A DNA stretch of 64,000 bases from the NCBI GenBank assembly GCA_000091205.1, contig AP006500.2; one strand, given 5' to 3'. The stretch comes from Cyanidioschyzon merolae (lineage: Eukaryota). Under the pieces are notes generated by a model. The model was given only the letters and a program-made list of their open reading frames with translations, did not search any database and was not told the origin of the DNA. This document shows positions 5,453 through 64,000 of this stretch, one piece after another; positions within the stretch are counted from its first letter, which is position 1; every line of letters begins with the position of its first letter. A program made the position numbers and the translations under genes.

Positions 5453-6360
5453 CAAGCGAAGCGCAGGCTGCAACAACCGTCCGCGCAACAAGTGCGTCGA
5501 CAACTACCGAACGCAGTAAAATCGGGACTTTACCACCACCGCCATCAATATCCTGCGACTGCCGAAAACCTAGCCAGAGAAGATAGGAACAGGAAGCAGT
5601 CACAGAAAAAGCCCGCACACGCTAGTCTCGATGCCAGCTCGAAGACATCCAGCCGTTCAGATTCGCACTCGAGCGCGCAGCGAGCACCGCAGCGTATACC
5701 TAGCGGACACGTATGTCGGACCCGATCCAACTGGAGGCCCCTGTGCGCTGCTTCGTTGCTGGCGGGCAACGCGCAAGCACGCGCGCGGCGCCGTTGACCG
5801 CGAGATCGACGGCGGGTATCTCACGCGTTGCGCGAGCGGCTGTATGCGATGGCGCGCGCATCTGCAAACGCCGCCTCTGAAAATATCTGAGGAGCGGGGC
5901 GTACACGCGGCGCCGAGCGTCGCGTCTCGAGAACGTTTCGCGGGCGATCCTGCGGCGAAGGCGCGCTTCGTCTCGACATCGCTAGATGCTGTGCGCTGCA
6001 TTATCGAATGCAGCTGCGCGTCAGCGGTGATATCTTGTAGCTGCAGTGCTGTGACGTGAGCGACCAGTTGCTCGATATTTGCGTGAGACTTCGAATCAGC
6101 GCTATAATATCATAGTTGTGGAGGTTGACGGCTTCTTTGACTGGTTCGAGGGGTGAGCGACTACATCTACTAGAAGCAGTGAGCAAAGTCCGGACGGCGG
6201 CGGCGGCGGCTTCTAGAACCTCGGTACGCTGAGGGTTTGGCACGCGCAGGCGCAACCGAGCTCGAGAACGCAACTCCTGGGGCGAATTTGTGCCAAACTT
6301 TTTAGGTTGTTTTCTTGAGTTTAGTTCGTCTGTGGGCGGCTAGAGTGTCGGCGCGGTACG

Positions 6361-11800: not shown

Positions 11801-13328
11801 CGGAGCGTTCTTTCGGTGCTCGGGGCTGATGATTGAGCACAGCGGGATACCCGCTGTTCGGCGCCTGCACCGTGGCAGGACTACTCCAGGATCTGGTGCA
11901 CACAGTACCGCTCTGAGCGCTCTGGTATGCCGCTGATGCATTGTACAGCGGTGATGCGCCACAGCCTCCTGCCCAGCGCATCAGGCTCGGATCGGAAGCC
12001 ACGATTGATGGGTTATTAGCCATTGGTAACGACGACGAACTCGAGGAGACCGATGACGCGGAAACCGGTGCTCGAGGCGAACGAGCATAGCCATTCAACG
12101 TGTTGATGCCTGACAATGCCGTCGTTGCACGCTGCTGATCCCAGGCGTCTTCGCATGACTTCCACGAAGCGGCCCCGGACACAGGTCCCGACCACGCAGA
12201 ACGGGAGCTTCCAAACGCGCGACCGCTCACGACAGATCCCCCTTCTAGCCCAGACACGGAACTGTACTGACTCGCACTTCGAGCTCGCACCGGTGACGAC
12301 ACTACCGAGGAGGACTCGAAGGCTGGGCTTGGCGTGCGCGCCACATCCGACCGTGCTATCTCTGAAATCGTGCGGTGCGGAATCGGTGCCCAGAGCCTTG
12401 AGTAGGCGCCCTCCGCAGCCGACGGTGTGGTCCTTCCAGTACACGTCAGTGGACCAGCCAGGGGCTGCTGTTCACTCGGCGAGGAACAACACGCCGCAGG
12501 CTGCCATACCCGCGGGCAGGGCGCCACTCCCCAGCCTTGAGGAGTTGCAGTGCGTAAATCGCTTTGGAAAGCGGCTGATCCGCTCTCAGAGCCTGCGGAA
12601 AGAGCTGACTGCTGTGCACGCCACCAGTCCGCCTGCTCTGGACGGCTTTGAAACGTCCACTGGGTCGGTGCACGCCTCAATGGCGGGGCGCTCTGAATAG
12701 ATAAATTTGAAAACCTCTCCAGTGTTGTCTGGTCCTTTTCTGTCCAGTCCCTTTGTAGGACACGGGGTCCACGTAATGGATCCGTCTGCGACCCGTAGCC
12801 ACGGAGCATCTCGTTGCGCCGGGTGTCGGCTCCCAGCTGATGGGAGCCAGAAGCAACTTTCCAACTCGCAAGGCGATCCGAAGACATCTGATTCGGCGTG
12901 GACAGCTCTCCAGGATCAGAATACTGCGCGTCGTTGGAGCCGGAAACACGTCCCGGTGACGGTACTGAACAAAAACCCGGACATCCCCAAATCGTCGAAG
13001 CATACATAGAGTTCTTGCCCGCATCTTCCCCGGATCCACCGATGCGCTCGGATGCTGCACTCCAAATATCTTCGCCTGTTGCCACTCCCAAAAGCGATGC
13101 ACCGCGTCCAAACTCCACCTTCTTCCGGAACTGACCCGGAGGCGGCGCGCTGGCCACTCGGGGCGGCTGTTCGTTTTCCAACGCCGCTTCAAAACCGACC
13201 GGAAGTGTCATCTGAGGCGACACAGCACTTCCGCTAACCGTACCAACGCGCACACGAGCCGCGTCGTCTTGCGCGGGCGCCGCCCTGGCTCGAGCATCGA
13301 CGCCGGTCCAATTGCGTTGCGTGCCCAT
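8808..13328 (-). CDS. Pumilio-family (PUF) RNA-binding protein, 1506 aa, long low-complexity N-terminal region
   Basis: Eight PUF repeats near the C-terminus (about nt 9130-10210): FGNYVVQKLLEHGT, MYGCRAVQKALE, DQNGNHVIQKCIE, SYGCRVIQRILE, DQYGNYVIQHVVEHG, HKYASNVVERCL, DQFGNYVVQRVLD. ATG start at 13328..13326. Confidence 0.85.
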   Translation of the reverse strand: MGTQRNWTGVDARARAAPAQDDAARVRVGTVSGSAVSPQMTLPVGFEAALENEQPPRVASAPPPGQFRKKVEFGRGASLLGVATGEDIWSAASERIGGSGEDAGKNSMYASTIWGCPGFCSVPSPGRVSGSNDAQYSDPGELSTPNQMSSDRLASWKVASGSHQLGADTRRNEMLRGYGSQTDPLRGPRVLQRDWTEKDQTTLERFSNLSIQSAPPLRRAPTQWTFQSRPEQADWWRAQQSALSAGSESGSAAFQSDLRTATPQGWGVAPCPRVWQPAACCSSPSEQQPLAGPLTCTGRTTPSAAEGAYSRLWAPIPHRTISEIARSDVARTPSPAFESSSVVSSPVRARSASQYSSVSGLEGGSVVSGRAFGSSRSAWSGPVSGAASWKSCEDAWDQQRATTALSGINTLNGYARSPRAPVSASSVSSSSSSLPMANNPSIVASDPSLMRWAGGCGASPLYNASAAYQSAQSGTVCTRSWSSPATVQAPNSGYPAVLNHQPRAPKERSADDRQICTGKKGDGLDTNGNEEHEQRVPNRRERAASSPGYVGHVTNGKSQNSEESSCGRRDAAARLESTLQWASRPPLNIPVTESQPSPETCVQEQRTARCCLESPADGVSEPDNQCRVDSQMIGSGTTSVSETGRPQIDPNANRTHRLSPSRQSSLVEGTFEHYECHNGRRLCPGYSATSPRPLQVANAAGAHLSQALPLISPSPGATQPLEESIWIHPDQIVLNGSEQAGLCTEVELADRRATPVYSWHPAAQLPSGIACPQGRAASVRKESTLVASGSEDANESSMFSLVPDHCVSFPPVIPSGCRFVCAHATEDAMRMRSAKHGNLADASIPESCLSAEPAAYGAQTTSPRPSSASSSSFVSEENGGRPAVPGSVGPAGANPIPAAAAAARAPRREPTTQMGHSSGVAQLRAPFVSVAPILTDSYSGQVRVGGFLQTAAAPPATVPPTGAPPRSPLHFPSLDLGTSGTLSSPDAANPPNSGVIASVGRSALLERFRTALLASDEAFTSWKLEDIRGQIVEFSTDQHGSRFIQTKLETATPDQVGWVLQEVLAEMNRLVTDVFGNYVVQKLLEHGTARDLQAIAMKLKNRILALSLHMYGCRAVQKALEVLPASTQAELVIELDGHVLKCIRDQNGNHVIQKCIERVPGQHVQFIVDAVRGQAVSLAEHSYGCRVIQRILEYSPEEQKVPIMREIMQACRTLIRDQYGNYVIQHVVEHGKEEERAHILRMVRDQCISMSQHKYASNVVERCLQHGSPADRKALIDILLGRSDVAGSGSGGGGSSGATALPRNSVPLIDLVQDQFGNYVVQRVLDVAGDEQRQQAAELLRANLNVIKRFSYGKHILARLESTGAAAMAPTFANREGAPGGAHPCVQNLQNTGKRAPAQRLQLEPSSNCSSASNSSSSSATTTSSASSTWNLRTASIASPSKRRGRATGCFSSEVLELEASMKKRSEGVTAGGFPQASPASATATAATAERNPRAAGRARRQTHTR
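10619..10638. repeat. (GCT)6 microsatellite inside the Pumilio CDS
   Basis: gctgctgctgctgctgcc read directly. Confidence 0.7.
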
Positions 13329-14733: not shown

Positions 14734-16110
14734 ATTTTCTTTCGATCGTTTCCCGAATGTTCGCTAGAAACACAGCTGCAATATTCAAAGTGCAGCAATA
14801 ACGGCGAATGGATTCATGGGTAGTTCTATGCCCCTCGGTTGTACTATCCGTGGGGATCCCGTCGACTCCCTGCCGCTGGCATTCGATACGTCACCGGGAT
14901 CAAGATGGTTCGTGACGCCCTCATACGCGGGTTCGTAACATAGCCGATATCATCATCTCATTCAGTCGCACGCGCCTGCACTCTTCTGTTTTCCTCAAGT
15001 ATAGCATGCTTGAATCATGCATTCTTCAAGTTTTCGATATTTCTCCTTAAAGGCAACTCGAGGGCGCAGCAATGCGTACAGCTGGGTGGACAGCGAAAAG
15101 AATCGCAACGACTTCACTTGAAGACTTTGTCACATGCTCATATCGAAGGCTGACTACAATTGTCAGGTCAGCTAATCGCATCCGTCCGAGAAGGAAATCC
15201 GCCCGTCCTTGAGACAAGCGGCAACGTGGCGTTCACAGCCGGCGAGATAACGCTCACGGCATACGTCCCCAGAGGCTTCGCTCGCTTCCGTACACACCGA
15301 AGAAAATCGGAGACTCAGACCTGAGTTATCGCAGCGACCGCGCCAGATAGAGAGTCTGGCACCGCCTTGCACGGAGGAAGCGTAGACGGATCGAAGTTTT
15401 CTAGAATTGCGCTCCAGCCTGCATTTTTGCCTCGCGGTACATGGTTCACCACGAAAAGCTTCCCGTTCCACGAATCCTCCATCGAATGCGACACTGTGCA
15501 CTGGCTTGCGCTGGCTTGCACTGGCTTGCGCTGGCATTGCCCCGCACTGCCTCGAGCCGACGCCCTCTGTGTGGTACGGCAACGCCGTTCTGCCTCCGTG
15601 CAGCGACCGCACTGGCGCTATAGGCGTCATTGCTGTCGCTTTCGGCAGGCACTAGGCACACACGATAGGACGTATGAAACGACTAGAATATCCGGGAAGT
15701 AGTGTGGGTCATGGAACTTGGAGGCAGGGCGTTCGATGGCTACTTCACCGCACACAAACAAAAAGAAAACAAAAAGTGCACAATCGGAGAACGCTGGCCT
15801 AAGTAAGCATTTTGTCAGTGAGAAAAATCCGACACTGTGTTCGCTGAGGGCATTGCGCTGATGCAACCTGCCAGCGAAGCGCACGGCAGCGAGCCCGCAA
15901 ACTGAGAAGAGCATCGTGGTAAGCCTTCGATACTCGTCAATTGCCTGGAACGAGCGAAAACGCGAGCTGTACGACGCCTCAAAACGGCCCTCCGAGGAAG
16001 AGGAGCAGGAGCAGGAGAGGCTTTGGTGGATATACGGGAACACCTGACCACAGCCAAAAGTCATCGATGCGAGGACGCACAGAGGCTGTATACAATGAAG
16101 ATGAAAATGG
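14734..16110. repeat. Direct repeat copy R2 (1377 bp), >99% identical to 4076-5452
   Basis: See R1; a few single-base differences (e.g. 4183 a vs 14841 g; 5284 a vs 15942 c). Confidence 0.85.
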
Positions 16111-16814
16111 CAAGCGAAATATGCATCGAAACATCTGCATGCGCATGAAATGTGTTGAAAACCACTGGAAGCAGCAAAACAGGGGCTTTAAATCTGCAGT
16201 GAACATCTTCCGATCGCTAATGATGGAGCTGGAAGGAACGGAGACACCGTCGTATCTCAAGTCGGAGCTCGAAGAGAAGGAAGAAAATCAGCCGCGAAAA
16301 AGCCCTTAATGCCTGTTGCTGACGGCAATTGGAGGATACCTAAAATTCAGTATTCACGTTCGAGGTAGAATAGTGTATCCGTTTCATTTTATTCTGAGAG
16401 AGGTCTAGCTCATGGCAGCTATAGAAAATGACTCACTGACTGGCTGCCACTTGCGATGAAGAGCTTGCATAGCAGGTTCTTTTCTAGATCGCAACACCTA
16501 CTGCAGGACCAGAGCTTGGGACAGTATCGTGAATAAGTGTTGTGCTTTGAGAAAGCGGCTGCACGGGCTCTGTACCAGAACGACAAGCGCGGTGAGCCCG
16601 CTACGCTGAAGATGCATTCGCGTTCGAAGCAGCGGCACACACAAGTGCGGTGCTGTCGCCCGCTAGCGCTGGGAGCGCTCCGCAAGCACACTCTTGAGGG
16701 CAACTTTCCCATCACGAGTCGAGTACTTTCACGCTTGCACAGTTCTAGAGCCGCGAGAGGCAGCACGCACAACTTCGTGGCCGCTGAAGCAGACGGCGCT
16801 CCTCGAGTTCGAAG

Positions 16815-21590: not shown

Positions 21591-22400
21591 TCCAGGAAGC
21601 GCTGACTCAACTGGCCCATAATTTAGGTGCTCAAGGACGCGAAAACGTTTCGCTACCATAGAGTGTACATATATGTCTACTTGCAGACAACTCCCGGACT
21701 GTTTCGACAGGACTCCTGCTATCCTCTTCAGCTTCTCATCGTATACTTCGAGCCCGAGAGGCTGCTCCATAAAGTTAGATAGCCACAGCCCTGCGGGTCT
21801 TGTCTTCAGTACCGCACATTGTCGGATTTTTATGGCGATGTTGAAGTCTCTGTTCACGAACTCTATGCGTTCGTTCTCGCTGGTGGAATTCACTGATACA
21901 AAGAGTCCTCGGACTCGTGCCCTGTATGGCGCCAAAGTCTCGTCATCGTTCCATCGGGCAAACGCCTTTTCTCGACGATCTCCTCATTTCTTCTTCGTCC
22001 ATTGTTCTTCTTCTTCGCTCGAGAGTCAACGAGAAGAGGATTTTTTGTTGTTTTTCCTGCACCCGGCGATGCCGACCCCCCTAGGATTCCCGACTTGCAT
22101 GTCCATACTTTCCCCTGGTTTTTTTATCACTTCAAACGAAAGCACTTTGCATGCGTCCGCGGTAAGCAGCGAAAAAGCATTTGATGACATGCACCTGAAT
22201 GCGGAACACTTTTCAGGGCAAAGACTGCGATGCGATAGCGATCAGCAGCGCGCGGCGCACCGCCGAGGCGTTACGCATTGCGGAATCGCGCACGCACGTA
22301 CGCATGCACGCATCGTATGGCGGCTTCCCGCCAGGCGATCTCGCTGATCCGTGCATGCCACGCGGACGGCACAGCCGTTATCGCCACATGCAACTGGCAT
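21588..22400 (-). pseudogene. Decayed Fanzor-like (TnpB/OrfB homolog) gene remnant, C-terminal RuvC-III region retained
   Basis: ORF 21588-21935 (minus) RARVRGLFVSVNSTSENERIEFVNRDFNIAIKIRQCAVLKTRP...LEVYDEKLKRIAGV..SGSCLQVDIYVHSMV aligns with the intact copy RAKVRGLLAIVSTTRNGKKRMEFVNRDFNAAINVRRCAVLETRP...VELDEKKLEAVVG..AGRCLHVSWRHLL; nucleotide homology to 59988-60165 visible; upstream continuation has frameshifts and stops (e.g. ..MER then shifted RARVRG; GRMQSAF stop vs GGKQRAFANF). Confidence 0.55.
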
Positions 22401-34968: not shown

Positions 34969-37032
34969 ATGGCGGAAGAGCCGGCGACTCCAGCAGACAC
35001 CGAGCTGCGGGACTCGCAAGGCGCTGACACTAGCCGGGAAGGGTCCTGGAGCCCCCACGAGTACCTCATTGAGCAGCCGCTGCACGTAAAGCAGCACCAA
35101 GGCGACGAGGCATCAGTTGCGGCCGACAGCGCACTGCCAACTGCCGAGACGGCTATGTGCACTGCACCAGCGCTGATGGAATACGAGGGTGATCGTCAGA
35201 GCAAAAGGGCTCGCGCCTCGGAGCTGGACTGGTCACCAGCGCTACCTCAAGGCAAAGATGAAGCATCAGCAACTGCTCACAAGACAAATAGTGAACATCT
35301 CGGGTCAGAGAGCCCCGACGATGTTGAGAAATCGAGTACGCCAGGTCATACGGACACAGAACTGGACAGGAATAGCACGTTAGTGTCGAACGCGGATCAC
35401 GCACGAGAACCCCTGGAGCGACGCCCTGGTGGTGACTATGACGAGCGCGACGCTTGTGCGACTACAGCTATGACAACGGGCGCTGCACCCCAAGACCCCG
35501 GGGACGAATGCAACGGCGACAGCGACGCTGCATCCACTGTCGACACAGAGCTCCTATTCGAGACACCGCTCGCCATCCTGAAAAAGTTCCTGGATGGCCA
35601 CTGGGTAGATGCCGGTCGCGGTCCAGTGCGCATTCTACGCCTACGCAGGTGCAGCGAGTCATCGGGCAACACAGAGACGTTTCTGCGCATGGACAGCGGC
35701 CTGCGCCCAGTGCTTTACCTCAGACTGGAGCACGAAACGGCACGTACTGCGCGATGGGAAAAAGTTCGCGAACGAAGTATCCGGTTTCTGTGTCCAGTCA
35801 GCGGGCAGGGCCCAGTGATGTGTGTGTTGCAGTTGCGCAATGCAGCGACTGCAGACAAGCTGCTGGCCCTGATCGAGCAGGTGGCGTTTGCTGCGGCCAA
35901 CAAGGCGCCAGTGGCATCGTATACTGAGCGTTCAACTGGCGTTCAGTACTCGAGTAGCTTTACTGAGCTGTGGACTAGATTCCAGGCAGACACAGTACCT
36001 GTTTTGGAGCAGCATCGAGAAAAAGCGCTCGACGATGACGAGACGGCTACTGCTCCTCGGGTTGTGCGCTTGGAGCAGCTCATCGATGCCTCACGCAAGA
36101 CGCTCGAGCTGCAGGACGCAGCGCAAGAGCGTCTCCTTCAGCTCCTAGAGGAAGCACGCGAGACTTGCACCCGGACAGAGCGCGAGCTCCAGACTGTGCA
36201 CCAGCGTCTGTGCCGGCGCATCGCAGCCGTGGAGCCGCAGCTCTCCAAGCTGAGGTCTAGTCTGGGACCCGTCGACTCGCCCGCACCGCTGACATCGGAT
36301 CCTGCGAAAGCGCTTTCCAACAATGACCTGATGATCACGTCGGTAGAGAGGCGTGCAGTGGAGGCATCCGCGTATGCAGATCCTGCCGACTTTCTTGGTT
36401 TCTGCGCGCGCTTATGCTCGTTTCGACCAAGCTGCTTCAAGCAGATGCGCTTAGAAGAGAAAGGGGCACAGGGCACGGGATATCCGCTTGTTATTGAGCT
36501 CGCACTTGGCGGATGGACGTATCTCTTGTCTGGGGCGTTGCACTGTGGGCGCTGCGGGGCCACATCAGCTGTCAGTGAACTCGTGAACGAGTCGGAATCC
36601 AGTGCACAGGGATGCAGACACCAGCCTGGGTGTCGCTGGCTCAGCGAGCGCTCTCCGACGACTTTTGCGTCGTTTCGTGCGGACTCGTCCACAAGTCGGA
36701 CGGAAGCATGCTGGGCACTGCACCTCGCTGACGCAGTCCGCTACTTGCGCGACGCACTGGAACGCTCCGCGTCTCCAAATGCCTCTGTTACTGAGCGTGT
36801 TGCATTTCGCAAGCTAGCCAGTCATGGTTGGGTATGCCAAACGCGGCAGGAGCGACTGCTTTTTTCCTGTATGTTCTGCGGGACACCGCGTTTCATGGCT
36901 CAGAGCGAGATCGAGCGTAGCCTCGACTCGACCGCAGCCGCAGGTCACCATCGCAGGTACTGTGCGTTCGCGGATACCACTGTTGCTGTCGATATCGAGC
37001 AGCAGCTACGAAATGGAACATCTGCAGCCTGA
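34969..37032 (+). CDS. Ran-binding-domain (RanBD, PH-like) containing protein, acidic N-terminal region
   Basis: Segment ELLFETPLAILKKFLDGHWVDAGRGPVRILRLRR...TFLRMDSGLRPVLYLRLEH...VMCVLQLRNAATADKLLALIEQ is colinear with RanBP1-type RanBD (EELFKMRAKLFRF...EWKERGTGDVKLL...RLLMRRDKTLKICANHYI...LLAIRFLNAENAQKF). Confidence 0.5.
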   Translation: MAEEPATPADTELRDSQGADTSREGSWSPHEYLIEQPLHVKQHQGDEASVAADSALPTAETAMCTAPALMEYEGDRQSKRARASELDWSPALPQGKDEASATAHKTNSEHLGSESPDDVEKSSTPGHTDTELDRNSTLVSNADHAREPLERRPGGDYDERDACATTAMTTGAAPQDPGDECNGDSDAASTVDTELLFETPLAILKKFLDGHWVDAGRGPVRILRLRRCSESSGNTETFLRMDSGLRPVLYLRLEHETARTARWEKVRERSIRFLCPVSGQGPVMCVLQLRNAATADKLLALIEQVAFAAANKAPVASYTERSTGVQYSSSFTELWTRFQADTVPVLEQHREKALDDDETATAPRVVRLEQLIDASRKTLELQDAAQERLLQLLEEARETCTRTERELQTVHQRLCRRIAAVEPQLSKLRSSLGPVDSPAPLTSDPAKALSNNDLMITSVERRAVEASAYADPADFLGFCARLCSFRPSCFKQMRLEEKGAQGTGYPLVIELALGGWTYLLSGALHCGRCGATSAVSELVNESESSAQGCRHQPGCRWLSERSPTTFASFRADSSTSRTEACWALHLADAVRYLRDALERSASPNASVTERVAFRKLASHGWVCQTRQERLLFSCMFCGTPRFMAQSEIERSLDSTAAAGHHRRYCAFADTTVAVDIEQQLRNGTSAA

Positions 37033-38257: not shown

Positions 38258-40075
38258 ATGTTCATAACAGCACACTGTTTTCGTCATTGTATACAGGGCG
38301 TCGGCTCAACGAGCTGGCACACCAGGGACTGCCCTCGGGGACGATCGAAAAGGTGCCGCCCGGTGTGCGCTTCCCGAGCACTCCCAGCGCTACGTGCCAC
38401 GCAGGATCGTACAGAGACTGCTGCGAAACTGACAGTGGCGAGTAATGGTGATGCTCCAGTTTACTGCTACATCACCAGCTCACCGTTCAAGAACGATTAC
38501 CTGGAGCGCGTCCTTAACGCCCGCGTTTACGAAGCGGCCGTTGAGACACCGCTTGACAACGCTCCGCTGCTGTCGCGTCGCCTTGGTCGACGAGTCCTGC
38601 TCAAACGCGAGGATCTCCAGCCAGTTTTCAGTTTCAAGATCCGTGGCGCCTACAATATGATCGCACTCACAGACATGAGCCAGTACGAAGGCGGAGTCGT
38701 TGCAGCCTCCGCTGGTAACCACGCGCAGGGCGTTGCACTGAGTGCGCAGCTGCTCGGGTTGCGTGCCACCATCGTGATGCCTTGCACCACACCGTCGATC
38801 AAAGTGAATGCGGTTCATCAACGAGGCGCTGAAGCCGTGCTCCACGGCGACACGTTCGATGACGCACAGGCACATGCACTGGCGCTGGCAGCGGAGCGTG
38901 GGGCGCTTTTCGTGCCCCCGTTCGACCATCCCGATATCATTGCGGGTCAGGGAACGATCGCTCTGGAGATACTTCGCAAGCATCCTGGACCCATTGAGGC
39001 AATTTTTGTGCCAGTTGGTGGGGGCGGTCTCATCGCTGGCATTGCTGTGGTTGTGAAGCGCCTTCGTCCCGAGATACGGATTATCGGTGTCGAGCCGTTC
39101 GATGCCGATGCCATGTACCAGAGCCTGCAGGCTAGTCAACGGGTCCGTTTGGCGCAGGTCGGGGTATTCGCTGATGGGGTTGCAGTGAAAGAGGTCGGCA
39201 CCGAGACGTTTCGCCTGTGTCGAGACCTCGTCGATGAGGTCATCCGCGTCGAGAACGACGAAATCTGCGCAGCCATTAAGGACATGTTCGAGGACACACG
39301 CTCGATCCTGGAGCCGGCTGGGGCACTCGCTATTGCCGGCTTGAAGCGCTACGCGCAGCGGAACATGGACACTAGCACTAGCACTAGTAGTAGCAGTAGC
39401 AGCAATAGCAATAGCAGTAGCAGTGGTACCCTCATTGCCATTGCGAGCGGTGCGAACACCAACTTCGATCGACTTCGACACGTCAGTGAGCGAGCAGAGA
39501 TCGGCGAGCACCGTGAGGCGGTACTAGCGGTTCGTATCCCGGAACGGCCGGGTGCCTTTCGGGCGATGATGAACGCACTCGGGCCGGGTGCCAATATCAC
39601 CGAGTTCAACTACCGCTACGCATCACCGGAAGTTGCGCATGTGTTTGTGGGACTCTCGGTCTCGGATCGACGCGGTGCTGCAGCAGCAATATCAAAGCTT
39701 GCCGCCCAAGGTTTTGCGGCTACAGATCTCACCGACAATGAGATGGCGAAGTTGCACTTGCGCCACTGCGTTGGGGGCATGGGTGGACCACATTTCGCCC
39801 CAGCGCACGAGATTGTCTACCGCTTTGAGTTCCCGGAGCGCCCAGGGGCGCTAGCACGATTCCTGAATGGTCTTCGTGGCTGGAATATTACCCTGTTTCA
39901 TTATCGGAATCACGGTAGCGATGTTGGTCGGGTGCTTGTCGGCTTGCAGGTGCCGCCATTGGAGCGTTCCACCTTCTTAGAGTTTGTGGAGCGCCTTGGC
40001 TACGCGTACGTGGACGAGACCCAGAATATCGCCTACCGGATGTTTCTGCGTCCGTTACCGAAGAACGAATCTTGA
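38258..40075 (+). CDS. Threonine dehydratase (threonine deaminase, biosynthetic, PLP-dependent) with N-terminal extension (probable organellar targeting peptide) and two C-terminal ACT-like regulatory domains
   Basis: PLP-binding motif FSFKIRGAYNMI, catalytic core (AASAGNHAQGVALSA, GGGGLIAGIA) and tandem regulatory domains (EFNYRYASPEVAHVFVGL; LFHYRNHGSDVGRVLVGLQV); about 75 aa R/S/A-rich leader upstream of the conserved core. Confidence 0.85.
   Translation: MFITAHCFRHCIQGVGSTSWHTRDCPRGRSKRCRPVCASRALPALRATQDRTETAAKLTVASNGDAPVYCYITSSPFKNDYLERVLNARVYEAAVETPLDNAPLLSRRLGRRVLLKREDLQPVFSFKIRGAYNMIALTDMSQYEGGVVAASAGNHAQGVALSAQLLGLRATIVMPCTTPSIKVNAVHQRGAEAVLHGDTFDDAQAHALALAAERGALFVPPFDHPDIIAGQGTIALEILRKHPGPIEAIFVPVGGGGLIAGIAVVVKRLRPEIRIIGVEPFDADAMYQSLQASQRVRLAQVGVFADGVAVKEVGTETFRLCRDLVDEVIRVENDEICAAIKDMFEDTRSILEPAGALAIAGLKRYAQRNMDTSTSTSSSSSSNSNSSSSGTLIAIASGANTNFDRLRHVSERAEIGEHREAVLAVRIPERPGAFRAMMNALGPGANITEFNYRYASPEVAHVFVGLSVSDRRGAAAAISKLAAQGFAATDLTDNEMAKLHLRHCVGGMGGPHFAPAHEIVYRFEFPERPGALARFLNGLRGWNITLFHYRNHGSDVGRVLVGLQVPPLERSTFLEFVERLGYAYVDETQNIAYRMFLRPLPKNES
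39361..39425. repeat. Imperfect (AGC/AGT)n microsatellite encoding a Ser/Thr/Asn linker (TSTSTSSSSSSNSNSSSSG) between catalytic and regulatory domains of threonine dehydratase
   Basis: actagcactagcactagtagtagcagtagcagcaatagcaatagcagtagcagtgg read directly. Confidence 0.7.
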
Positions 40076-49378: not shown

Positions 49379-50407
49379 TCACTGGGGCCTGACAGTCGCT
49401 CGTGGCGACTCAACAGCGCATCGGTTCACTGTGGCGGGGCCACCGTCGCTTCGCAGCGCGACCTGCACTTGCCGGTAGGCTTCCCAGAGGGCAATGGCGG
49501 CGCTGGTCGATAGATTGTACGATCTGATACCGGCATCACCGGGACACACCATTGGAATCGCAATCGTCCGCTCCCGAGGAATATCCTCGGGCGGAATGCG
49601 TTCGAAACCATCTAGCTCGTTCCCAAATATTAGCGTGATCTTCGTTGCAAGAACCTCACTTCCTTTCTTTGATGAGACAAGGTCCGCGTCCAGCAACGAG
49701 CTCTGTGCGAACTTGGTGAAGTAAAAAACGTTACCCAACTGGGGCAAACCCTCGTCGCGAAAGGCCTGCCAACTCGACCATACACGCAGATCAACGAAAG
49801 GCCAATAGTCAAGGCCAGCCCGTTTCAGGTGGCGATCACTCAGAGAAAAACCCAGCGGTTCAATGATATGAAGCCGTGCTTGAAAACCTACTGTAGTTCT
49901 GGCGGTATTCCCGGTATTCCAGTGAATAGAGGGTGCGTAGAAAACAACGTTCAGTAGGGGCTCGCCTGTGCCCGTGTGACGCAGTGGCGCGCTCACAACG
50001 CCTGGGCCATAGCTCGCGCGTACGCACTTGCTTCTCGAGATGCACTGTCGAGATGCTCTACTGACGCCTGCGAAACAGGGCAGTTCTGGTGACCACTCGG
50101 TAACAAAAACGAACTCGAGTGCGCGCATAAGCGCCTGGCGTCGGTACCAGGTTCCTGTGTCCATACAGAGCGCGCAATATGAGGAATACTGGGGTGTTCG
50201 CCCTGCGGCGAGTGCATTTCTTTGTGGTTCTTTGAGAGCACGTTTCCTCGAACAGGGAATCGTCATCATTGCTGACTTGATACCAGCAATGGGAGAGCGT
50301 GCATGTATCCACGCCTTTCCTCCAACTTCTGAGACCCATATTCCCCGTCGCAGGTAGTGGTCATTTCGTGCGTTCCGCAGTGCGCCGAGTCTGCCATGAG
50401 CGTCCAC
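49379..50407 (-). CDS. SpoU/TrmH-family RNA 2'-O-methyltransferase, TrmL-like (tRNA wobble-position methyltransferase), with about 150-aa N-terminal extension (possible organellar targeting)
   Basis: C-terminal 170 aa LNVVFYAPSIHWNTGNTARTTVGFQARLHIIEPLGFSLSDRHLKRAGLDYW...RTIAIPMVCPGDAGIRSYNLSTSAAIALWEAYRQ is colinear with bacterial TrmL ([73 protein letters not shown]). Confidence 0.7.
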   Translation of the reverse strand: MDAHGRLGALRNARNDHYLRRGIWVSEVGGKAWIHARSPIAGIKSAMMTIPCSRKRALKEPQRNALAAGRTPQYSSYCALCMDTGTWYRRQALMRALEFVFVTEWSPELPCFAGVSRASRQCISRSKCVRASYGPGVVSAPLRHTGTGEPLLNVVFYAPSIHWNTGNTARTTVGFQARLHIIEPLGFSLSDRHLKRAGLDYWPFVDLRVWSSWQAFRDEGLPQLGNVFYFTKFAQSSLLDADLVSSKKGSEVLATKITLIFGNELDGFERIPPEDIPRERTIAIPMVCPGDAGIRSYNLSTSAAIALWEAYRQVQVALRSDGGPATVNRCAVESPRATVRPQ

Positions 50408-57294: not shown

Positions 57295-59979
57295 TCAAAC
57301 GGATGCTTGGTTATCTGTCTCGTCCCAGAGCGGTACACGCAACACCGGCTCTATCAAAACAACCCAGGGCTGTAGCCCCGACTGCTCTTTGATGATATCG
57401 CTGGCAGGCCGCTCCGCTCGCAGATCATCACCCCAGGATGCAACCAGCAGCACATCGATCCACACAAAAGGCATGGTGAGCACATATCGAAGCGACTGGG
57501 AGAACGCCTCCACTCGCTCTGGTTCAGCCGTTGACCAGCTCATGTTCGTCCCAGTGCAGAGCGTTGTCAGATCCTCGTCAAGTACCCAAGCCGAAATCAC
57601 CGTCGGCGCAGAAGCGATTATTTTCCGATTTTCGAAACGCAGGTCGTCATTTAGAAACGGCTGATTTTCCACCGCTTCTTTCGATCCACTCGGGCACTGG
57701 AATGGCAGATCTGTCAAAAGCAGCTGCAGCATGTGCCGCGAGTCAGCGTCAACGATCCAGTGCACGTCGCAGACGCAGGCGTACACGCGGTAGAGCCGAT
57801 GCATTGGAGTGTCGGCGCGCGCGCACGCATTACCCGCTGCACGCATCGAGCGCAGTGCACGCATGTCATCCAACATATGCGCAAGCGACTGAGGGCGTAG
57901 CGCTTGCCAGGGTATGCTCATCGTTGAACTTGTCTGTAGCAGCGGTGGACCACTACAATGCAGGCAGCTGGGGTGCTGTACAGGACCCCGTTTGACAATT
58001 CCTGTCTCTGCGGACTCGATATTAGTCGTTGTATGGGAGGTGGTGGTGTAGGCAACGCGTTCGCGATTCAGTTCGGTGCACGGGGCGCTGAGTATGGGAT
58101 AGGCAGCAGCGCTCATTTGTTCCGGTGTATTTCGGGTGCCAAGCGCACGCTGGTGAGCAACGGGCGCTGCTTCGTATGCGCTTTGCGAATCGGTCCGACA
58201 CGTGGGATCAGTCAATGCTGCTCCCAAGTGCTGCATGCGACTTTGCACCTCGGGCATCCATTGCGGGAACTTGTAAATCGATGAACCCTCATTCATGGTC
58301 AGGCGCAAAGGCAGACCCGGGCGTCGATCGAGGCGTACATCGCGAAGCCGGAACCAGTTACCGCGAAGGTGCGGCTCCAGTCGATGTGTGAGCCGCGTCC
58401 AGCACTCTGCGGCAATGGAGACCGTCACCAAATCGGAGATGCTTCCGTCGGTGACTTTGAGCAGGAATTCGTACGGGGTTTTCTCCAAGTCCCGAATGAG
58501 CACCACCAGATCGTATCGTAGCCGTTGCATGGCGCTGCCGTTTGCTGAGTCGACCACAAGCGAACTTTGCAGAATGTCTCGCAGGGTGGCGGAGAACGCC
58601 TTCGAGCCGAGAAAGCCGCTTTGCGACAGGAGTGCACGCGCCCAACGTAGCAACTCCATGGCGTAACATTTTTCACTATTGGTGATCACGATCGATTTCG
58701 TGTTTGACGGGTAAGCATATATGAGCGGATCGGGTAAATGATTCATTTCTTCGAGATGAGTGGCGGTCGCGGCTCGCAGACCGGACAAGTCTCCGGAAGC
58801 GGAAGCCGACGAGCGTCCCAAACCAGCTCCCTCATCATGCTGAGCAAGTGCAGGCCAGAGGCACATAGAAGAGAGCGAATTTGTCTTCAGCTCCAACGTC
58901 TCCGTCTTCGAACCACTCGGACTCTGTTGGGGAAACCACCGCAGCTCGGCGCGATGTACCCGGACGACGTCTCCTACCCCGATGTACGGAACGCAATCGC
59001 TAAGACGGCTACTGAACGAGGTAAGCATGAATTGGGGAGGTGCGAAGCTCACCAGCCGCCCATCAGAGTCTGTTACGACGATGCTTGGATCGATGATCTG
59101 CAGCTCAGTGAGCAGTTCTCCGGTACGTACCAGGCGAGGCGCCCGGACGTCGACGATCACCCCGTAAACGTCATACGTGCGACCGGACATCTGGCCGGGG
59201 TGTCGCAACTGCTCAAGCGTTAAGTAGTGATGTTTTGAGTCCAGGGGCACTACAGGCCTCGGAACTGGTTCGCAACTTTCGTGCTGTGCGACGGGGCGTC
59301 CACTGGTGTCCGTCCCTGCACCATGCTCTGTGACGACCAGAGTTTGCCCTATAGACTCCGGAGACAGCTTCATGATACGTGCGTTTGCAAGTTGGGATAG
59401 ATCGTTGCACTTGCCGGCGTCTTTGAATATGGTGAGCGCGGGTTTGCAGGCTGTTGCGTCTGCGGCACCAGCACAGCAGGCCTCTCGCTGGTCAGGACCC
59501 AGTACCACCGCGTACTCGTGTAGTTCCAGACACGAGTCCAACAGTCCATGGTCCCTGGCCTCACAAATGTCGCCCAGCGGTACGACCTGTGCGTTCTGAA
59601 CCTCCACAACGTCCCAGTGTGCTAGGGCGGTGCCCGCGGCCGTCCAGTCGCCGGTGCAAACAAGCACAACCACGGTCTGCTGTGGAGCAGGAACACTCGG
59701 CCAGGGCTCAAGTAAAGCAAGGATCGCTCTACCTGAACGATTTTCAACTAATGTTCGAAGGACTCGCCCTCGTAGACGAAATGGATGCTCAGCGTTGCAG
59801 GTGTAGGGCTTGAGGCTCCGAAACTGCACGAGACGCAGTTCCATAGATTCCGTCGCACCAACAACGCCGTTCGAAAGTCGAACGACGCCAACGGTGTACA
59901 GTAGTGGCGGGAAAACCGTCTTAGAGAAGATGTCTCCAACTGACGTGCAGACACCTCCCCGCCTTTTTGGACCGGCCAC
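57295..59979 (-). CDS. POT1-like telomere end-binding protein (OB-fold); annotated start overlaps Fanzor stop, true start may be internal Met (MELRLVQF..., about 59844)
   Basis: HYLTLEQLRHPGQMSGRTYDVYGVIVDVRAPRL...LQIIDPS...GDVVRVHRAELRWF is colinear with POT1 OB1 (YTYLPLNQL...VNVYGVVKFF...IVDQT...GDIVRFHRLKIQ); an additional OB-like segment lies N-terminal. Confidence 0.5.
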   Translation of the reverse strand: MAGPKRRGGVCTSVGDIFSKTVFPPLLYTVGVVRLSNGVVGATESMELRLVQFRSLKPYTCNAEHPFRLRGRVLRTLVENRSGRAILALLEPWPSVPAPQQTVVVLVCTGDWTAAGTALAHWDVVEVQNAQVVPLGDICEARDHGLLDSCLELHEYAVVLGPDQREACCAGAADATACKPALTIFKDAGKCNDLSQLANARIMKLSPESIGQTLVVTEHGAGTDTSGRPVAQHESCEPVPRPVVPLDSKHHYLTLEQLRHPGQMSGRTYDVYGVIVDVRAPRLVRTGELLTELQIIDPSIVVTDSDGRLVSFAPPQFMLTSFSSRLSDCVPYIGVGDVVRVHRAELRWFPQQSPSGSKTETLELKTNSLSSMCLWPALAQHDEGAGLGRSSASASGDLSGLRAATATHLEEMNHLPDPLIYAYPSNTKSIVITNSEKCYAMELLRWARALLSQSGFLGSKAFSATLRDILQSSLVVDSANGSAMQRLRYDLVVLIRDLEKTPYEFLLKVTDGSISDLVTVSIAAECWTRLTHRLEPHLRGNWFRLRDVRLDRRPGLPLRLTMNEGSSIYKFPQWMPEVQSRMQHLGAALTDPTCRTDSQSAYEAAPVAHQRALGTRNTPEQMSAAAYPILSAPCTELNRERVAYTTTSHTTTNIESAETGIVKRGPVQHPSCLHCSGPPLLQTSSTMSIPWQALRPQSLAHMLDDMRALRSMRAAGNACARADTPMHRLYRVYACVCDVHWIVDADSRHMLQLLLTDLPFQCPSGSKEAVENQPFLNDDLRFENRKIIASAPTVISAWVLDEDLTTLCTGTNMSWSTAEPERVEAFSQSLRYVLTMPFVWIDVLLVASWGDDLRAERPASDIIKEQSGLQPWVVLIEPVLRVPLWDETDNQASV

Positions 59980-61297
59980 CCACTACTGCTTCCAACTTTT
60001 TCTCATCTAGTTCGACTTTGATAGGTTGTCCAATAAAGTTCTCTCTTGTCAGCTCTGGAGGTCTCGTCTCCAGGACCGCACATCTCCGTACATTGATAGC
60101 GGCATTAAAGTCTCGGTTCACAAACTCCATACGTTTCTTCCCGTTGCGAGTTGTACTCACTATTGCGAGTAGCCCTCGAACTTTCGCCCTCCTTTCCATT
60201 TGCTCCTCCGTCAGCGGTCCGTACTTTGCTATTTCCTCAGGGCTCCTCTGGCACTTTTCTATCTCCACGCTCTGAAGTGTACAACCCAGTTCGTGGTATA
60301 TATACGATGTTCGGAACTCATCTACAGGTATCGTAACAAAACGCCTTGCGCACTGTTTGTGCACCCTCGTCGTTGGAGCTGGAGTAGTGCCTTTCTTGGG
60401 CGCCCAGCGCCCTGCCCCATACGCTACTACGAGCCTTTGACTTTCATCCTCCTTCAAGGCGCTCAACTGATTGAAAAAGTTGGCAAACGCCCGCTGCTTC
60501 CCACCGTATAGATTCATTCGCAAACGAGCCCACCGGGGCTTCGTATACTCCTCCCACAGCGCATCCCAATGCGCCATGCGAACTTCCATGAATTTCCGAA
60601 AAGCTTCAAATTTCGCGCTTCGGCTAGTCACCTTGCTCAAAGCTTCCAGGTGATCCTTCATCCCTGAATTCCAAGTCTCGATTTTCTTCCTTGCATTCAT
60701 GATTCCCGATTCTCGATAGTATCTCGCTCTCGAGAACGTCAAGAGACGCATGTCTTTCTGACGTAAGTTGCCGTCAGTACAATCTTCCGCCCGCTTCGGT
60801 GCTGCGATGGTGATGATATTTGAGTTTCCGGTGTCCGCGCCAACGACAAAGTCGTTATCTTGCACTTTCTGCTTCTCAGAACCGGGCTTCTTGTTTTCTT
60901 CATGGTTCGTCGCGTCAACGACAAAGTCGTTATCCTGCACCTCCTGCACCAGAGGATCCGCTTCCTTCCCATCTTCATCCTTCGTCACGTCAACGACAAG
61001 GTCGTTATCCTCCACCTCCTGCATCGCAGGTTCTGCCTCCTTCTCATCTTCATCGTTCGTCACGTCAACGACAAAGTCGTTCTCTTGCACCTCCTGTGTC
61101 GCAGGATCCGCCTCCTTCTCATATTCATCCTTCGCCACGTCAACGACAAACTCGTTATCCTCCACCTCCTGCATCACAGGATCCTCCTCTTTGTTTTCTC
61201 CATCCTTCGCGACGAGCGCAGCCGAGGGCGGAACTGGCCGACCTTCCTTCAACCGCCGATAGTGTACACACAAGGGTACTCCATCGGTTTCGATCAA
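59921..61297 (-). CDS. Fanzor-like protein, C-terminal segment (acidic tandem repeats, RuvC-II, Zn-finger-like, RuvC-III)
   Basis: See the mobile_element entry; the ORF-track start at 61297 is TTG, and the reading frame is open a further 30 codons upstream. Confidence 0.75.
   Translation of the reverse strand: MIETDGVPLCVHYRRLKEGRPVPPSAALVAKDGENKEEDPVMQEVEDNEFVVDVAKDEYEKEADPATQEVQENDFVVDVTNDEDEKEAEPAMQEVEDNDLVVDVTKDEDGKEADPLVQEVQDNDFVVDATNHEENKKPGSEKQKVQDNDFVVGADTGNSNIITIAAPKRAEDCTDGNLRQKDMRLLTFSRARYYRESGIMNARKKIETWNSGMKDHLEALSKVTSRSAKFEAFRKFMEVRMAHWDALWEEYTKPRWARLRMNLYGGKQRAFANFFNQLSALKEDESQRLVVAYGAGRWAPKKGTTPAPTTRVHKQCARRFVTIPVDEFRTSYIYHELGCTLQSVEIEKCQRSPEEIAKYGPLTEEQMERRAKVRGLLAIVSTTRNGKKRMEFVNRDFNAAINVRRCAVLETRPPELTRENFIGQPIKVELDEKKLEAVVGGRSKKAGRCLHVSWRHLL
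60841..61215. repeat. 5 x 75-bp in-frame tandem repeat (minisatellite) inside the Fanzor-like ORF, encoding acidic 25-aa units (EVQDNDFVVDVTKDEDEKEADPxxQ)
   Basis: Unit starts caacgacaa(a/g)gtcgtt at 60841, 60916, 60991, 61066, 61141 (period exactly 75); protein shows DNEFVVDVAKDEYEKEADPATQEVQENDFVVDVTNDEDEKEAEPAMQEVEDNDLVVDVTKDEDGKEADPLVQEVQDNDFVVDATNHEENK. Confidence 0.85.
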
Positions 61298-61677
61298 CCC
61301 AGTAAATACCTTTTTTTGCTGACTTTTAGACGTTTGAAATCGAAGATACTCTTCCAGTACGTCTCCCGGTGTTCGCCGGAGAACTCCTCCCTGCTAACAT
61401 CGAACTCCGGACAGATCTCCCTCATGATGCCGTAAAGGACGCCGGAGTCGATAGTTACAAAATGTGACTTGACTTTCCACATTGGAACCACGTTGAAGCG
61501 CTTCCCCATTAGGAAATTCTTCCGTCTCTCCCACTGTTCATTTGTCTCTTCACTCAGCTTCACCTCCGCTTTGCGTGCGAGCTCTCGGTCCAAAAACACG
61601 AAATAGCGCAGGATGAGGCGGTAGTATCTTTCCTTATCTTTTTTCAACGGTGATATCTTGTCTGTTGGATTCACCAA
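61294..61677 (-). CDS. Fanzor-like protein, middle segment containing RuvC-I (VTIDSGV)
   Basis: Frame joins the C-terminal segment if the A7 run at about 61313-61319 (plus strand T7) is A8; ORF-track start is TTG/GTG. Confidence 0.65.
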
Positions 61678-62423
61678 CCCAGTGCCGCACGGTGCTCTTG
61701 TATAGCCGCACGGATCACAGAAGCTTCATTCGTGCTCCTGCGTGATGTCTTCATATCGACAAATTCGATCTCATCTTCATACTTTCGATCGTTCGTGATG
61801 CCGTTGATCATCGCCCATATTCCTTTGCGAGAGATGCCCGGGTAGAGTGCAAACACGGCGCGTTTCATGAAACGTTCGAGGTTCTCTGTCAAATGCTTCT
61901 TCAGGTTCGTAATGTACTTCATTACCCCGTATGTGTAAATATTTCCGTCACCCTTGTATCGGGTACGCTCGAAGCGGTATTCGGCGTAGTTTTCGTGGAG
62001 AGCGTGCACTAGCACATTTTCCTTCCGCGCTTCCCCTGTACCAAGCATCAGGTGACGAATAAAGGTCTTGTGGAAAAACTCGTCTGGAATCTCGACCGTT
62101 TCCATGTGCGTCACGTCGCGATACATCTCCCTCGCCAAATGCATCAGCCCTGAAGACGCCTTGACAATACTCTTGGAGTGCGAGTCGACACGTTTTTCGA
62201 TAGCGTCTCGCAACTTTTCCCTGTAGGGATCCTTGATATGTCCAAGAAGGAAGGCTTTCACCACCATCTCGTCGTACAGTCGTCTTTCTTGCCGCCTTCG
62301 ACGTAGGGCGTCCACCTTTCGATTCTCCTTCACTTCCTTTTCTTCTGGACTCGGCACTGTATTTGTTTTTTTTCTGGCAGCCGGCGACACTGGGCCTCCA
62401 GGATCGTGGACTTGCTTTTTCAT
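61671..62423 (-). CDS. Fanzor-like protein, N-terminal segment
   Basis: 250-aa ORF with ATG start (MKKQVHDPGG...), basic N-terminus (KKTNTVP..RRRRQERR, NLS-like); frame shifts by one relative to the middle segment within 61673-61720. Confidence 0.6.
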   Translation of the reverse strand: MKKQVHDPGGPVSPAARKKTNTVPSPEEKEVKENRKVDALRRRRQERRLYDEMVVKAFLLGHIKDPYREKLRDAIEKRVDSHSKSIVKASSGLMHLAREMYRDVTHMETVEIPDEFFHKTFIRHLMLGTGEARKENVLVHALHENYAEYRFERTRYKGDGNIYTYGVMKYITNLKKHLTENLERFMKRAVFALYPGISRKGIWAMINGITNDRKYEDEIEFVDMKTSRRSTNEASVIRAAIQEHRAALGW

Positions 62424-63626
62424 AGCTTTCCTTTTTTAGTTTTTTTGAGAAAGAACGCTCTTTGAACCCTTCTGTTATATACTGCGAAAAATTAATCGAA
62501 TATTTTTACTTGAGGTTTGAAGCACAATCGAACTGAAAGACTGTACGTTGCTATGACCTGAACGAAAATACAACGTTTACAATAGATCTACATGCTAGAG
62601 ATCAGGATCACGTTCCCCTTCAAAAACGGCATGTGCGTCGTGTCTCATGCCTGCCTGATCTCCGAGGTGCGCTCACTGAGCGCGATGCAAACTAGTCACA
62701 AACTATTTATCAAAGAACAACTATCTTTAAGCCCAACACACCACGCCCGCATAAGAGGTCTAGTTTTTCCGGAGAAGCTCTGAAAGTGGGCGAACGCGGG
62801 GTGCTTGGGCGACGGCGAAGGAAGCCCACGACAGGGACGTTGACCGCAACGAACAGAGGGGCGCAGACAGTGGCAGCAGAAAATATTGACGAGGGTTCTG
62901 AGCAGTCATCCGCTGCTCTCGAAACAACGCTGCAGGCTCCGGCGCAAATCCTGGATTCATTCTTGAACTCGGGCTCAGGATTACCTCCTACATTGGTTTC
63001 TACCTCAACTCTGGAAACAGTCTCGGCGGATACTTTGGAAGACGGCTGGCAGTATGTTCGCGGTCGAAGCTGGAATAAGCGACTTATCCGCCTATGTGTT
63101 TGGGGAGCGGATACGAAGCCGCTGAAAGGGTAGTTCGTAGAGTATCCGCTGTGGTTGCGGGTAGCTTCACGCGTCCGGCAAGATAAAGGTCGCATTCGAA
63201 TCGACCTTGACTAATGTACTTCTGATTTTACGCTAGCACTGCGGCAAGCACTCAGTGAACGACTGGAATGCAGGAGGCAATGGTGGCGTGTGCGTTCTCA
63301 CACCCTGGGGAGGGTGCATCTAAATCGACGACGTATCTCTGGAGTACCGCAGCGTTACTCCTATTCCCTTATGCGCTACGACTCGATAGGTTTCGCATCA
63401 TGGAATATTTGTGGGATAGCCTCGATACTAGACGACGAGATATCGAATTACCAGTACAGTAATGAAGAACTGATACAAGTCGTTGACTGTACAATGGGTA
63501 AAGAGACCCAACCAGATACGGAGAAGGAGACACAGAAACCTCATGATCCACCTAGATGCAAAATATCCAGAGAAAGCAGCTCAGGAAAGAGCCCGAAGAA
63601 GAAGAAGACCAGCAAGAAAAAATAGA

Positions 63627-64000
63627 TGAATAGAAAGAAGAACTCCCAAACGAGCCCATCACAAGTCATCCCCCGAAAGGGCACCCCAGCGGGATCTCAA
63701 GAAAGCTGTCACCAAACCCAGGCACCTGCTCACAGCGCTGAAGATCCGAAAAGCCGTGAATACAAATCTTCAGACCAATTGGCACGCGAGTTTGTAGATG
63801 GGAATCAGAAGATTGCCAGAGAACTGGGACTGCTTGCACCTGAACACAACAGTAGCAAGCCGCAGTACCTCAAACGACGTACCAAAACTCGGATTGATGA
63901 ATGCCACCGACTCCATAAGATCGTCAACCGCACCGCCATACGCGCCAACGCCGGAGACAAGGAAGCGAAAGCAGCGCTACCGGCGCTACAGGCGCAACAT
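63627..64000 (+). CDS. Hypothetical ORF, 5'-complete, runs off the right edge (MNRKKNSQTSPSQVIPRKG...REFVDGNQKIARELGLLAPEH...); AT-richer DNA adjacent to the Fanzor-like element
   Basis: Manual translation from ATG 63627; open to window end; basic/low-complexity; no family recognised. Confidence 0.2.

Follow-up and report, generated by a model that had tools for sequence, protein, structure and literature searches.

Organization of the locus

A stretch of 64,000 nucleotides (nt) of Cyanidioschyzon merolae 10D, called the window throughout, carries a broken Fanzor-like gene, and we describe here this gene and the mobile element to which it belongs, CMe-1A. All coordinates are positions in the window and refer to the minus strand unless stated otherwise. 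The gene consists of three minus-strand open reading frames (ORFs) in three different frames, which abut or overlap by a few bases (62423-61671, 61677-61294 and 61297-59921). When joined they give a frame-corrected protein of 834 amino acids (aa), confirming the arrangement and the length of about 830 aa given in the initial annotation of this DNA. ORF piece 1 (61671-62423) encodes the first 250 aa, in which the N-terminus is basic and a helical region resembles a recognition (REC) lobe, and ends at a TGA created by the first of two frameshifts. ORF piece 2 (61294-61677; 127 aa) holds a conserved VTIDSGV motif at 61458-61438, whilst ORF piece 3 (59921-61297; 458 aa) comprises a repeat linker, the RuvC domain and a reduced target nucleic acid-binding (TNB) region. 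The long N-terminal region that had been remarked upon is present, as are all three of the peptides quoted at that time, VTIDSGV, IPVDEFRTS and VNRDFNAAINV, the motif identity of the first being a separate matter that is considered below.

The ORFs lie within the Fanzor unit of the CMe-1A element (59863-62688), which corresponds to positions ~645-3169 of the published consensus and is the portion common to all copies. Ahead of the first ORF is a 5' untranslated leader (62424-62688), homologous to consensus 645-905 and containing a subterminal hairpin. GC content is 0.45-0.53 over 59750-62750 compared with 0.55-0.59 in the downstream gene, so the segment is indeed AT-richer than its flank. The Fanzor ORF pieces had no entry in the protein collection searched, and the locus is without an annotated gene.

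Identity of the element

CMe-1A has been described as a Fanzor1 family of C. merolae whose copies number about 150 and match the consensus at about 80% identity (Bao & Jurka 2013, Mob DNA 4:12; PMC3627910). The consensus of 3169 bp (~3 kb) lacks terminal inverted repeats (TIRs), its target-site duplications (TSDs) were not determinable, and it encodes a single-exon protein of 734 aa, CMe-1; the 5' 635 bp of the consensus are a separate repeat, TE-N2_CMe (PMC3627910). The same authors remarked on the long-maintained coding capacity, listed Mariner in their family table as the transposase that accompanies some Fanzor1 families and noted a C-terminal zinc-finger-like domain in Fanzor/TnpB (PMC3627910).

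The consensus sequence (Additional file 2 of PMC3627910) was compared with the window using blastn. Consensus 660-2196 aligned with 62672-61135 at 85.8% identity and consensus 2122-3169 with 60909-59865 at 87.6% identity, the matches together covering consensus 660-3169, which is 79% of the 3169 bp. At the protein level, the frame-corrected translation aligned with CMe-1 from the first to the last residue, with 592 of 734 positions identical (80.7%; BLASTP 1154 bits), a match far beyond chance, and the sole gap in the alignment was a 100-aa insertion in the window copy. No match to consensus 1-~645, the TE-N2_CMe part, adjoined the window copy, which is therefore a 5' variant or a truncated member of CMe-1A.

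Homology searching gave 18 close relatives with identities of 48-77%. The paralog P0001 (752 aa, 75% identical to the window protein) reads through both junctions between the ORF pieces, and the Pfam family precomputed for the paralogs is PF26935/DUF8286. Furthermore, 71 related loci were recovered from metagenomes in differing contexts, indicating mobility, or multi-copy dispersal, of the family. We conclude that 59863-62688 is almost certainly one degraded, dead copy of CMe-1A, a Fanzor1-carrying mobile element of ~3 kb without TIRs.

Fanzor1 membership of the CMe-1 family

An exhaustive profile search (E<=1e-3) returned 1,429 cluster representatives, and 46 of these sequences make up the alignment A2; residue numbers below are those of P0001. 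Searched against 177,635 PDB sequences, profile A2 matched only Fanzor1 proteins, three in number: PpFz1 of Parasitella (9cf0; E 5.4e-21), SpuFz1 of Spizellomyces (8gkh; E 9.1e-12) and GtFz1 of Guillardia (9cer; E 1.9e-5). AlphaFold2 (AF2) was used with A2 to model the intact paralog P0001, giving a mean predicted local distance difference test score (pLDDT) of 79.1 and a predicted template modelling score (pTM) of 0.76. The best seven Foldseek matches of this model in the PDB were all Fanzor1 structures, aligned over the full length with E values of 2e-16 to 8e-13, and target-normalised template modelling (TM) scores to the Fanzor1 structures were 0.51-0.72. Next in rank came TnpB (8h1j; E 1.4e-2) and Cas12f (E 1.9e-2).

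Membership of the CMe-1 family in Fanzor1, with a predicted bilobed fold of REC/wedge (WED) and RuvC/TNB lobes, is well supported by the profile and the model. The proposal that the locus holds a Fanzor1-type, TnpB-superfamily RuvC nuclease gene on a mobile element is likewise borne out by the A2 profile, the P0001 model and the alignment with CMe-1.

Catalytic residues and the TNB region

The RuvC-I motif is GADTGNS (in VVGADTGNS; 60821-60841), with the Asp codon at 60835-60833, the family consensus being GxDPG. The RuvC-II glutamate is at an alternative, 'rearranged' position in VDEFRTS (in IPVDEFRTS; 60305-60325, Glu codon 60319-60317), and the RuvC-III motif is NRDFNAAINV (60089-60118, Asp codon 60112-60110). 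D484, G623, E656 and D725 are invariant across the 46 sequences of A2. In the alignment with the SpuFz1 chain, D484/E656/D725 fall on D777/E935/D1000, which after subtraction of a 394-residue tag offset are native D383/E541/D606, the residues named as catalytic in SpuFz1 (PMC11423790). G623, in VVAYGAG, occupies the canonical position of the RuvC-II glutamate, and E656 lies 33 residues downstream; a rearranged RuvC-II site, with Gly or Pro in place of the canonical Glu and a conserved alternative Glu further on in DE(F/Y)RTS, has been described for Fanzors (PMC10530073).

The catalytic D/E/D residues claimed for this gene are therefore all kept, and RuvC-II and RuvC-III were correctly placed at IPVDEFRTS and VNRDFNAAINV. 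RuvC-I had been assigned to VTIDSGV, an assignment that we replace: the RuvC-I aspartate is in GADTGNS, which aligns with the DPG motif of the family and with SpuFz1 D383, and VTIDSGV aligns with 'VRIDTIILY' of SpuFz1, about 100 residues upstream of that aspartate. Between RuvC-II and RuvC-III is the reduced TNB region (60113-60316), which has no CxxC pairs and is modelled with lower AF2 confidence; the window copy has HELGC...EKC only.

Frameshifts and decay of the copy

The two frame disruptions noticed in the gene proved to be single-base deletions relative to intact paralogs (GGGG to GGG and A8 to A7). Frameshift 1 (61674-61684) is a 1-nt deletion in a G run (CACTGGGTTGG), with GGG in place of the GGGG of the paralogs, and DNA comparison over the 71 loci showed that all paralogs carry one base more at this site. 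Frameshift 2 is in an A7 run (61311-61317), for which intact paralogs have 8 bases. An independently assembled metagenome contig, L013, represents the same locus and is 99.4% identical across the element 3' flank; it has the same deletion at frameshift 1 and A8 at frameshift 2. Frameshift 1 is probably a genuine deletion, because it is also found in this independent contig, and frameshift 2 can be put down to polymorphism or to a homopolymer error. Short introns at the junctions (GT...AG candidates of 17 and 31 nt) were considered and rejected, since the paralogs are colinear with a difference of 1 nt per site. Programmed frameshifting was likewise rejected, the paralogs being colinear and junction 1 having no slippery sequence.

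At positions conserved in at least 90% of sequences the window copy deviates by P485T (changing DPG to DTG), K555R, G556S, A625G and I732V. It had been suggested that the protein could be an active programmable nuclease. With frameshift 1 reproduced in L013 and the near-invariant RuvC-I proline changed, activity of the window copy is unlikely.

Immediately before RuvC-I is a 75-bp tandem repeat (60841-61209) of 4.9 units with 81% matches, detected by Tandem Repeats Finder, by self-blast and as the gap in the protein alignment, and encoding acidic units of 25 aa. The published CMe-1A consensus has one 75-bp unit, and the four extra units are the 100-aa insertion of the window copy. Unit number differs among the paralogs (P0006 has more than P0002), and the equivalent of the linker is disordered in the AF2 model (pLDDT <50, residues 374-470).

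Decay is general in the family. Only 1 of 66 related loci, L001, has the N-terminal motif and the three RuvC motifs together in a single open frame, at 10001-12259 of that contig (open from 9800, 819 codons from stop to stop). L001 is, from its sequence, a candidate intact Fanzor of the CMe-1 type from a hot-spring Cyanidioschyzon-like genome. Moreover, divergence of the RuvC body from the consensus over all copies is 8.5, 6.2 and 20.7% at first, second and third codon positions, and this dependence on codon position indicates purifying selection on the protein during diversification of the family, in agreement with the remark of Bao & Jurka (2013) on the coding capacity of CMe-1A.

The 5' end

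Homology to the 71 metagenome copies starts at a cluster of positions, 62686-62688. Just inside this boundary is the 5' subterminal hairpin GCGCTC-AGT-GAGCGC (62683-62669), which has two stem variants and is predicted for 21 of the 26 distinct copies. With a GC-rich subterminal hairpin at each end and neither TIRs nor TSDs, the unit has ends resembling those of IS200/IS605 elements and Helitrons.

Differing 5' regions meet the unit at ~62688, either TE-N2 in direct or inverted orientation or another region of 121-650 nt, and at some loci a 3' fragment of another CMe-1 copy is present further upstream. Two loci illustrate the latter arrangement (L070 2516-2974 and L036 1234-1340), in which a 107-450-nt 3'-terminal CMe-1 fragment stands ~75-90 nt upstream of an alternative 5' region of ~650 nt, head to tail and tandem-like. 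TE-N2_CMe itself was seen in metagenome loci abutting the unit at its 5' end, in both orientations, and also 46 nt past the 3' end (L033 1859-2503; L020 3698-4047; L056 2882-3575; L053 1713-2406). This juxtaposition suggests that the ends of one of the two are a target of the other, or that both insert with the same preference.

In the window, the sequence upstream of the unit (62689-64000) recurs at 87-89% identity upstream of CMe-1 units in at least six loci (L004, L008, L009, L037, L047 and L048) whose 3' flanks are of four kinds, and an inverted copy occurs in L023 (2421-3056). No downstream synteny was found in loci with a window-like 5' flank. Contigs tend to end inside sequence of this kind, which may be a 5' region specific to a subfamily or another transposon.

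A more distant relative was also found beside a transposase gene. In L074 (541-1449 and 1607-3706; a brine metagenome), the gene for P0021, 39% identical, follows directly downstream of a gene for a Tc1/mariner-type DDE_3 transposase.

The 3' end

At the opposite end, homology among copies stops sharply at ...TTCGACTTTCGAACGGCG(TT), at about 59863 in the window, with the ends clustered at 59854-59866. The ORF has no fixed end (in many copies RPPE is immediately followed by an in-frame TAG, and in P0001 the stop comes after RENFIG), and the DNA is conserved to the end of the element. Over the last 61 codons, divergence at the three codon positions is 12.2, 9.8 and 15.0%, the third positions being more conserved than in the RuvC body (20.7%); likewise, the 3' untranslated region (UTR) diverges by 15.7% compared with 18.1% for the 5' UTR.

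The last 221 nt (59863-60083) fold better than shuffled sequences, with minimum free energy z scores of -2.77 for the window copy and -2.89 for the consensus. Helices that recur in single-sequence folds are a hairpin at 60073-60055, a long-range helix of 9 bp pairing 59988-59980 with 59907-59899, and a 10-bp terminal hairpin, CGTCGTTCGA-CTT-TCGAACGGCG, at 59887-59865. Fold score, recurrent helices and codon-position divergence together mark 59863-60083 as a candidate for an omegaRNA scaffold, a cis-acting right end or both. The guide RNA of Fanzors extends over the end of the ORF and the right end of the element (PMC10530073, PMC11423790), and by this analogy a candidate omegaRNA is the best-supported reading of the 3' ~220 nt. 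The locus of one distant relative was also inspected for a similar 3' RNA, but its contig stops 32 nt past the gene.

Surrounding genes and repeats

Outside the element, on its 3' side, is the host gene BAM82608.1 (57295-59844), identified by an exact protein match and annotated as 'similar to telomere-binding protein alpha subunit', a POT1-like protein. The gene has the same orientation as the element and its ATG, at 59844, follows the element's 3' end by ~20 nt, so that the promoter and 5' UTR of BAM82608.1 must be located within the element or extend across it. Six long ORFs of the window are exact matches to C. merolae 10D proteins BAM82592 to BAM82604 (including CYME_CMR418C; 1.25-Mb chromosome). 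The host, taken at first for an uncharacterised GC-rich protist, is hence a fully sequenced model red alga.

Other sequences related to CMe-1A are scattered through the window. A 245-bp fragment at 21679-21923 (-) matches the 3'-terminal part of the consensus (2841-3088) at 69% identity and looks like a second, far more decayed remnant of the family. TE-N2-like fragments occur at 4892-5070, 15550-15728 and 50319-50401 (+), the last being a short piece with 74% identity to consensus 88-172. The other two (76.5% to CMe-1A consensus 84-256) are each held in one copy of a 1.45-kb direct repeat, 97.9% identical (4081-5532 and 14739-16190, +), which flanks a pumilio-like gene (8808-13328).

Elsewhere, CMR418C (34969-37032; 687 aa, hypothetical) adjoins a threonine ammonia-lyase gene (38258-40075). 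For each of the two proteins, the 90%-identity cluster contains a second 10D protein, encoded on another chromosome (CMH270C/BAM79912 and BAM79913, respectively), and the pairing indicates a two-gene segmental duplication between chromosomes.

Discussion

By analogy with characterised Fanzor1 and TnpB enzymes, the product of the single-exon CMe-1 family gene would be a bilobed nuclease, about 734 aa long, with one RuvC active site made up of the GxDPG aspartate, the 'rearranged' DEFRTS glutamate and the NRDxNAA aspartate. The nuclease would bind an omegaRNA made from the element's 3' end; this RNA would overlap the last codons and the right end and read into flanking DNA to provide the guide. 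The enzyme would then cut matching DNA next to a short target-adjacent motif (TAM), and such cutting probably aids the persistence or spread of the element.

Several results count against the reading of the locus as a degraded Fanzor1 element, in whole or in part. None of the three ORFs had a significant match in Pfam, NCBIfam or PHROGs in single-sequence scans, and a phmmer search of ORF piece 3 against the PDB was equally empty. The only match was to PF07282, below threshold and at the RuvC-III motif, and Pfam on ten distant relatives gave a single sub-threshold PF07282 match and no more. Profile searching, which the initial annotation had proposed as a check, was thus negative with the single sequence and positive with the family profile. 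The structural model is that of the paralog P0001 (75% identical) and not of the window protein; structure prediction, the second check, returned the RuvC-like, Fanzor1 fold. The region described as Cys/His zinc-finger-like is not a zinc ribbon, since none of the 46 A2 members has two CxxC motifs (CxxC...CxxC) between RuvC-II and RuvC-III. Judged from the aligned relatives, the missing zinc ribbon is a clade-wide trait and not damage to the window copy; it lowers confidence in a canonical TNB domain, and the RuvC and fold evidence stand.

The ends of the element are open to similar objections. The left boundary is not fixable from the window because 62689-64000 is itself repetitive, and a search for the left end, a TSD and a TAM across the 71 loci fixed no boundary or target motif; no transposase was definable either. 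RNAalifold on 37 right ends gave no consensus structure. Covariation in a hand-built four-helix structure was not above that of shuffles (80.1% paired vs 79.7%; 68/500), and Rfam had no match, either for the whole stretch at the gathering threshold or for the 3' end at E<=1. Since the copies are mostly dead relics, little covariation is expected either way. Finally, frameshift 2 is not common to L013, so part of the apparent damage to the window copy is possibly polymorphism or error.

This last point bears on whether the gene might after all be intact and active, the frame breaks being homopolymer sequencing errors or being bypassed by -1 frameshifting or transcriptional slippage to yield a working 834-aa nuclease. 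Each break is the loss of 1 nt from a short homopolymer (GGG and A7) and needs the same -1 correction, the A8 of L013 means that the second break is not fixed, and D, E and D are all kept. However, the exact reproduction of frameshift 1 in an independent contig speaks against a sequencing error, its context (CTG GGT TGG TGA) has no slippery heptamer, and frameshifting is not a feature of the family, because neither any paralog nor the published consensus has a break at either site. Adding the change of the DPG proline to threonine, K555R and G556S, the absence of an annotated protein and the fact that 65 of 66 related loci are also broken, we consider an active gene very improbable. Still less credible, to the point of near dismissal, is a domesticated, immobile host gene of Fanzor origin, perhaps linked to the adjacent telomere-binding protein gene. 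The position ~20 nt upstream of a POT1-like gene on the same strand would suit such a role, as would the same insertion in the environmental relative L013. Yet the reading frame is broken and not annotated, dozens of paralogs are dispersed in unrelated contexts, and the 3' flank is not common to more distant Cyanidioschyzon-like contigs. A degraded copy of a mobile element accounts for the locus far better than either.

A further alternative concerns the mechanism of the ends and not the identity of the protein, namely that the conserved last 220 nt and both subterminal hairpins act as DNA signals for a single-strand (HUH-type) transposase supplied in trans, as in IS200/IS605 and Helitrons, and not as an omegaRNA scaffold. 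It would suit the lack of TIRs and of a detectable TSD (PMC3627910), the GC-rich hairpins at both ends (62683-62669, in 21/26 distinct copies, and 59887-59865) and the sharp right end at ...GGCG(TT). No HUH transposase was seen in the element or loci examined, though, and the 39%-identical relative adjoins a Tc1/mariner DDE transposase instead. Furthermore, the long-range helix tolerates G-U pairs (103/189 and 216/224), fitting RNA, and the two roles are not mutually exclusive, as the right end of TnpB elements does both. We regard this explanation as unlikely.

A broader and speculative reading joins four parts, and we put it forward as doubtful when taken as a whole. In this reading, CMe-1 and roughly 1,400 cluster-level relatives would be a zinc-ribbon-less Fanzor1 clade; its units would be hairpin-ended, without TIRs or TSDs, and would move like IS200/IS605; their last ~220 nt would be the omegaRNA; and rare intact copies (L001/P0001, hot-spring Cyanidioschyzon) would have RNA-guided nuclease activity adapted to 40-50 C. 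Broken copies could then supply guide RNAs in trans, and the reading would not make the window copy itself functional.

There is little new in the element as such, its family, host, copy number and consensus having been known, and published, since 2013; the biochemistry and structures of Fanzor1 followed in 2023-2024. What is of note is that the Fanzor assignment was made from raw sequence, for a gene that standard single-sequence hidden Markov model libraries miss. The remaining leads concern the family and not the locus, namely a TNB that lacks the zinc ribbon, a unit with hairpins at its ends and no TIRs, and a well-folding 3' end that is a candidate omegaRNA. In addition, the intact relative L001 is a possible source of protein from a moderately thermophilic eukaryote.

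Comparison with known systems

The closest comparison is with the CMe-1A consensus, which comes from the same genome and has 86-88% DNA identity to the window copy over consensus 660-3169, the same right end (...GAAAGGCG), no TIRs and a single exon. The window copy differs in lacking the 5' ~645 bp (the TE-N2_CMe part), in place of which it has other repeated sequence upstream, and in having four extra 75-bp repeat units, two 1-nt deletions and DTG for DPG.

Likeness to bacterial and archaeal TnpB of IS200/IS605 (e.g. ISDra2 TnpB, PDB 8H1J) and to Cas12f is seen in the RuvC fold, as weak Foldseek matches; with IS200/IS605 TnpB there are also in common the lack of TIRs and TSDs, the subterminal hairpins and the sub-threshold PF07282 match at RuvC-III. 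In contrast to IS200/IS605 TnpB, CMe-1 is about twice as large, has a sizeable helical region at its N-terminus, has Gly for the canonical RuvC-II Glu and an alternative Glu 33 residues downstream, and is found without TnpA in a eukaryotic nuclear genome. An IS200/IS605-type TnpB element was itself considered as an identity for the locus and rejected, the element being without a second ORF, its neighbours unrelated host genes and its host eukaryotic.

Among structurally characterised enzymes, CMe-1 can be compared with SpuFz1 (PDB 8GKH, 9CEU-9CEZ), PpFz1 (9CF0-3) and GtFz1 (9CER-T). The CMe-1 family has only 12-15% sequence identity to these proteins, has no CxxC...CxxC in the TNB, has a disordered acidic repeat linker before RuvC-I and is associated with no transposase or TIR. 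It nevertheless resembles them in the full-length fold (TM up to 0.72) and in having D/E/D in equal positions with the rearranged glutamate, and a guide RNA would be expected, as in these systems, from the 3' end of the element (PMC10530073, PMC11423790).

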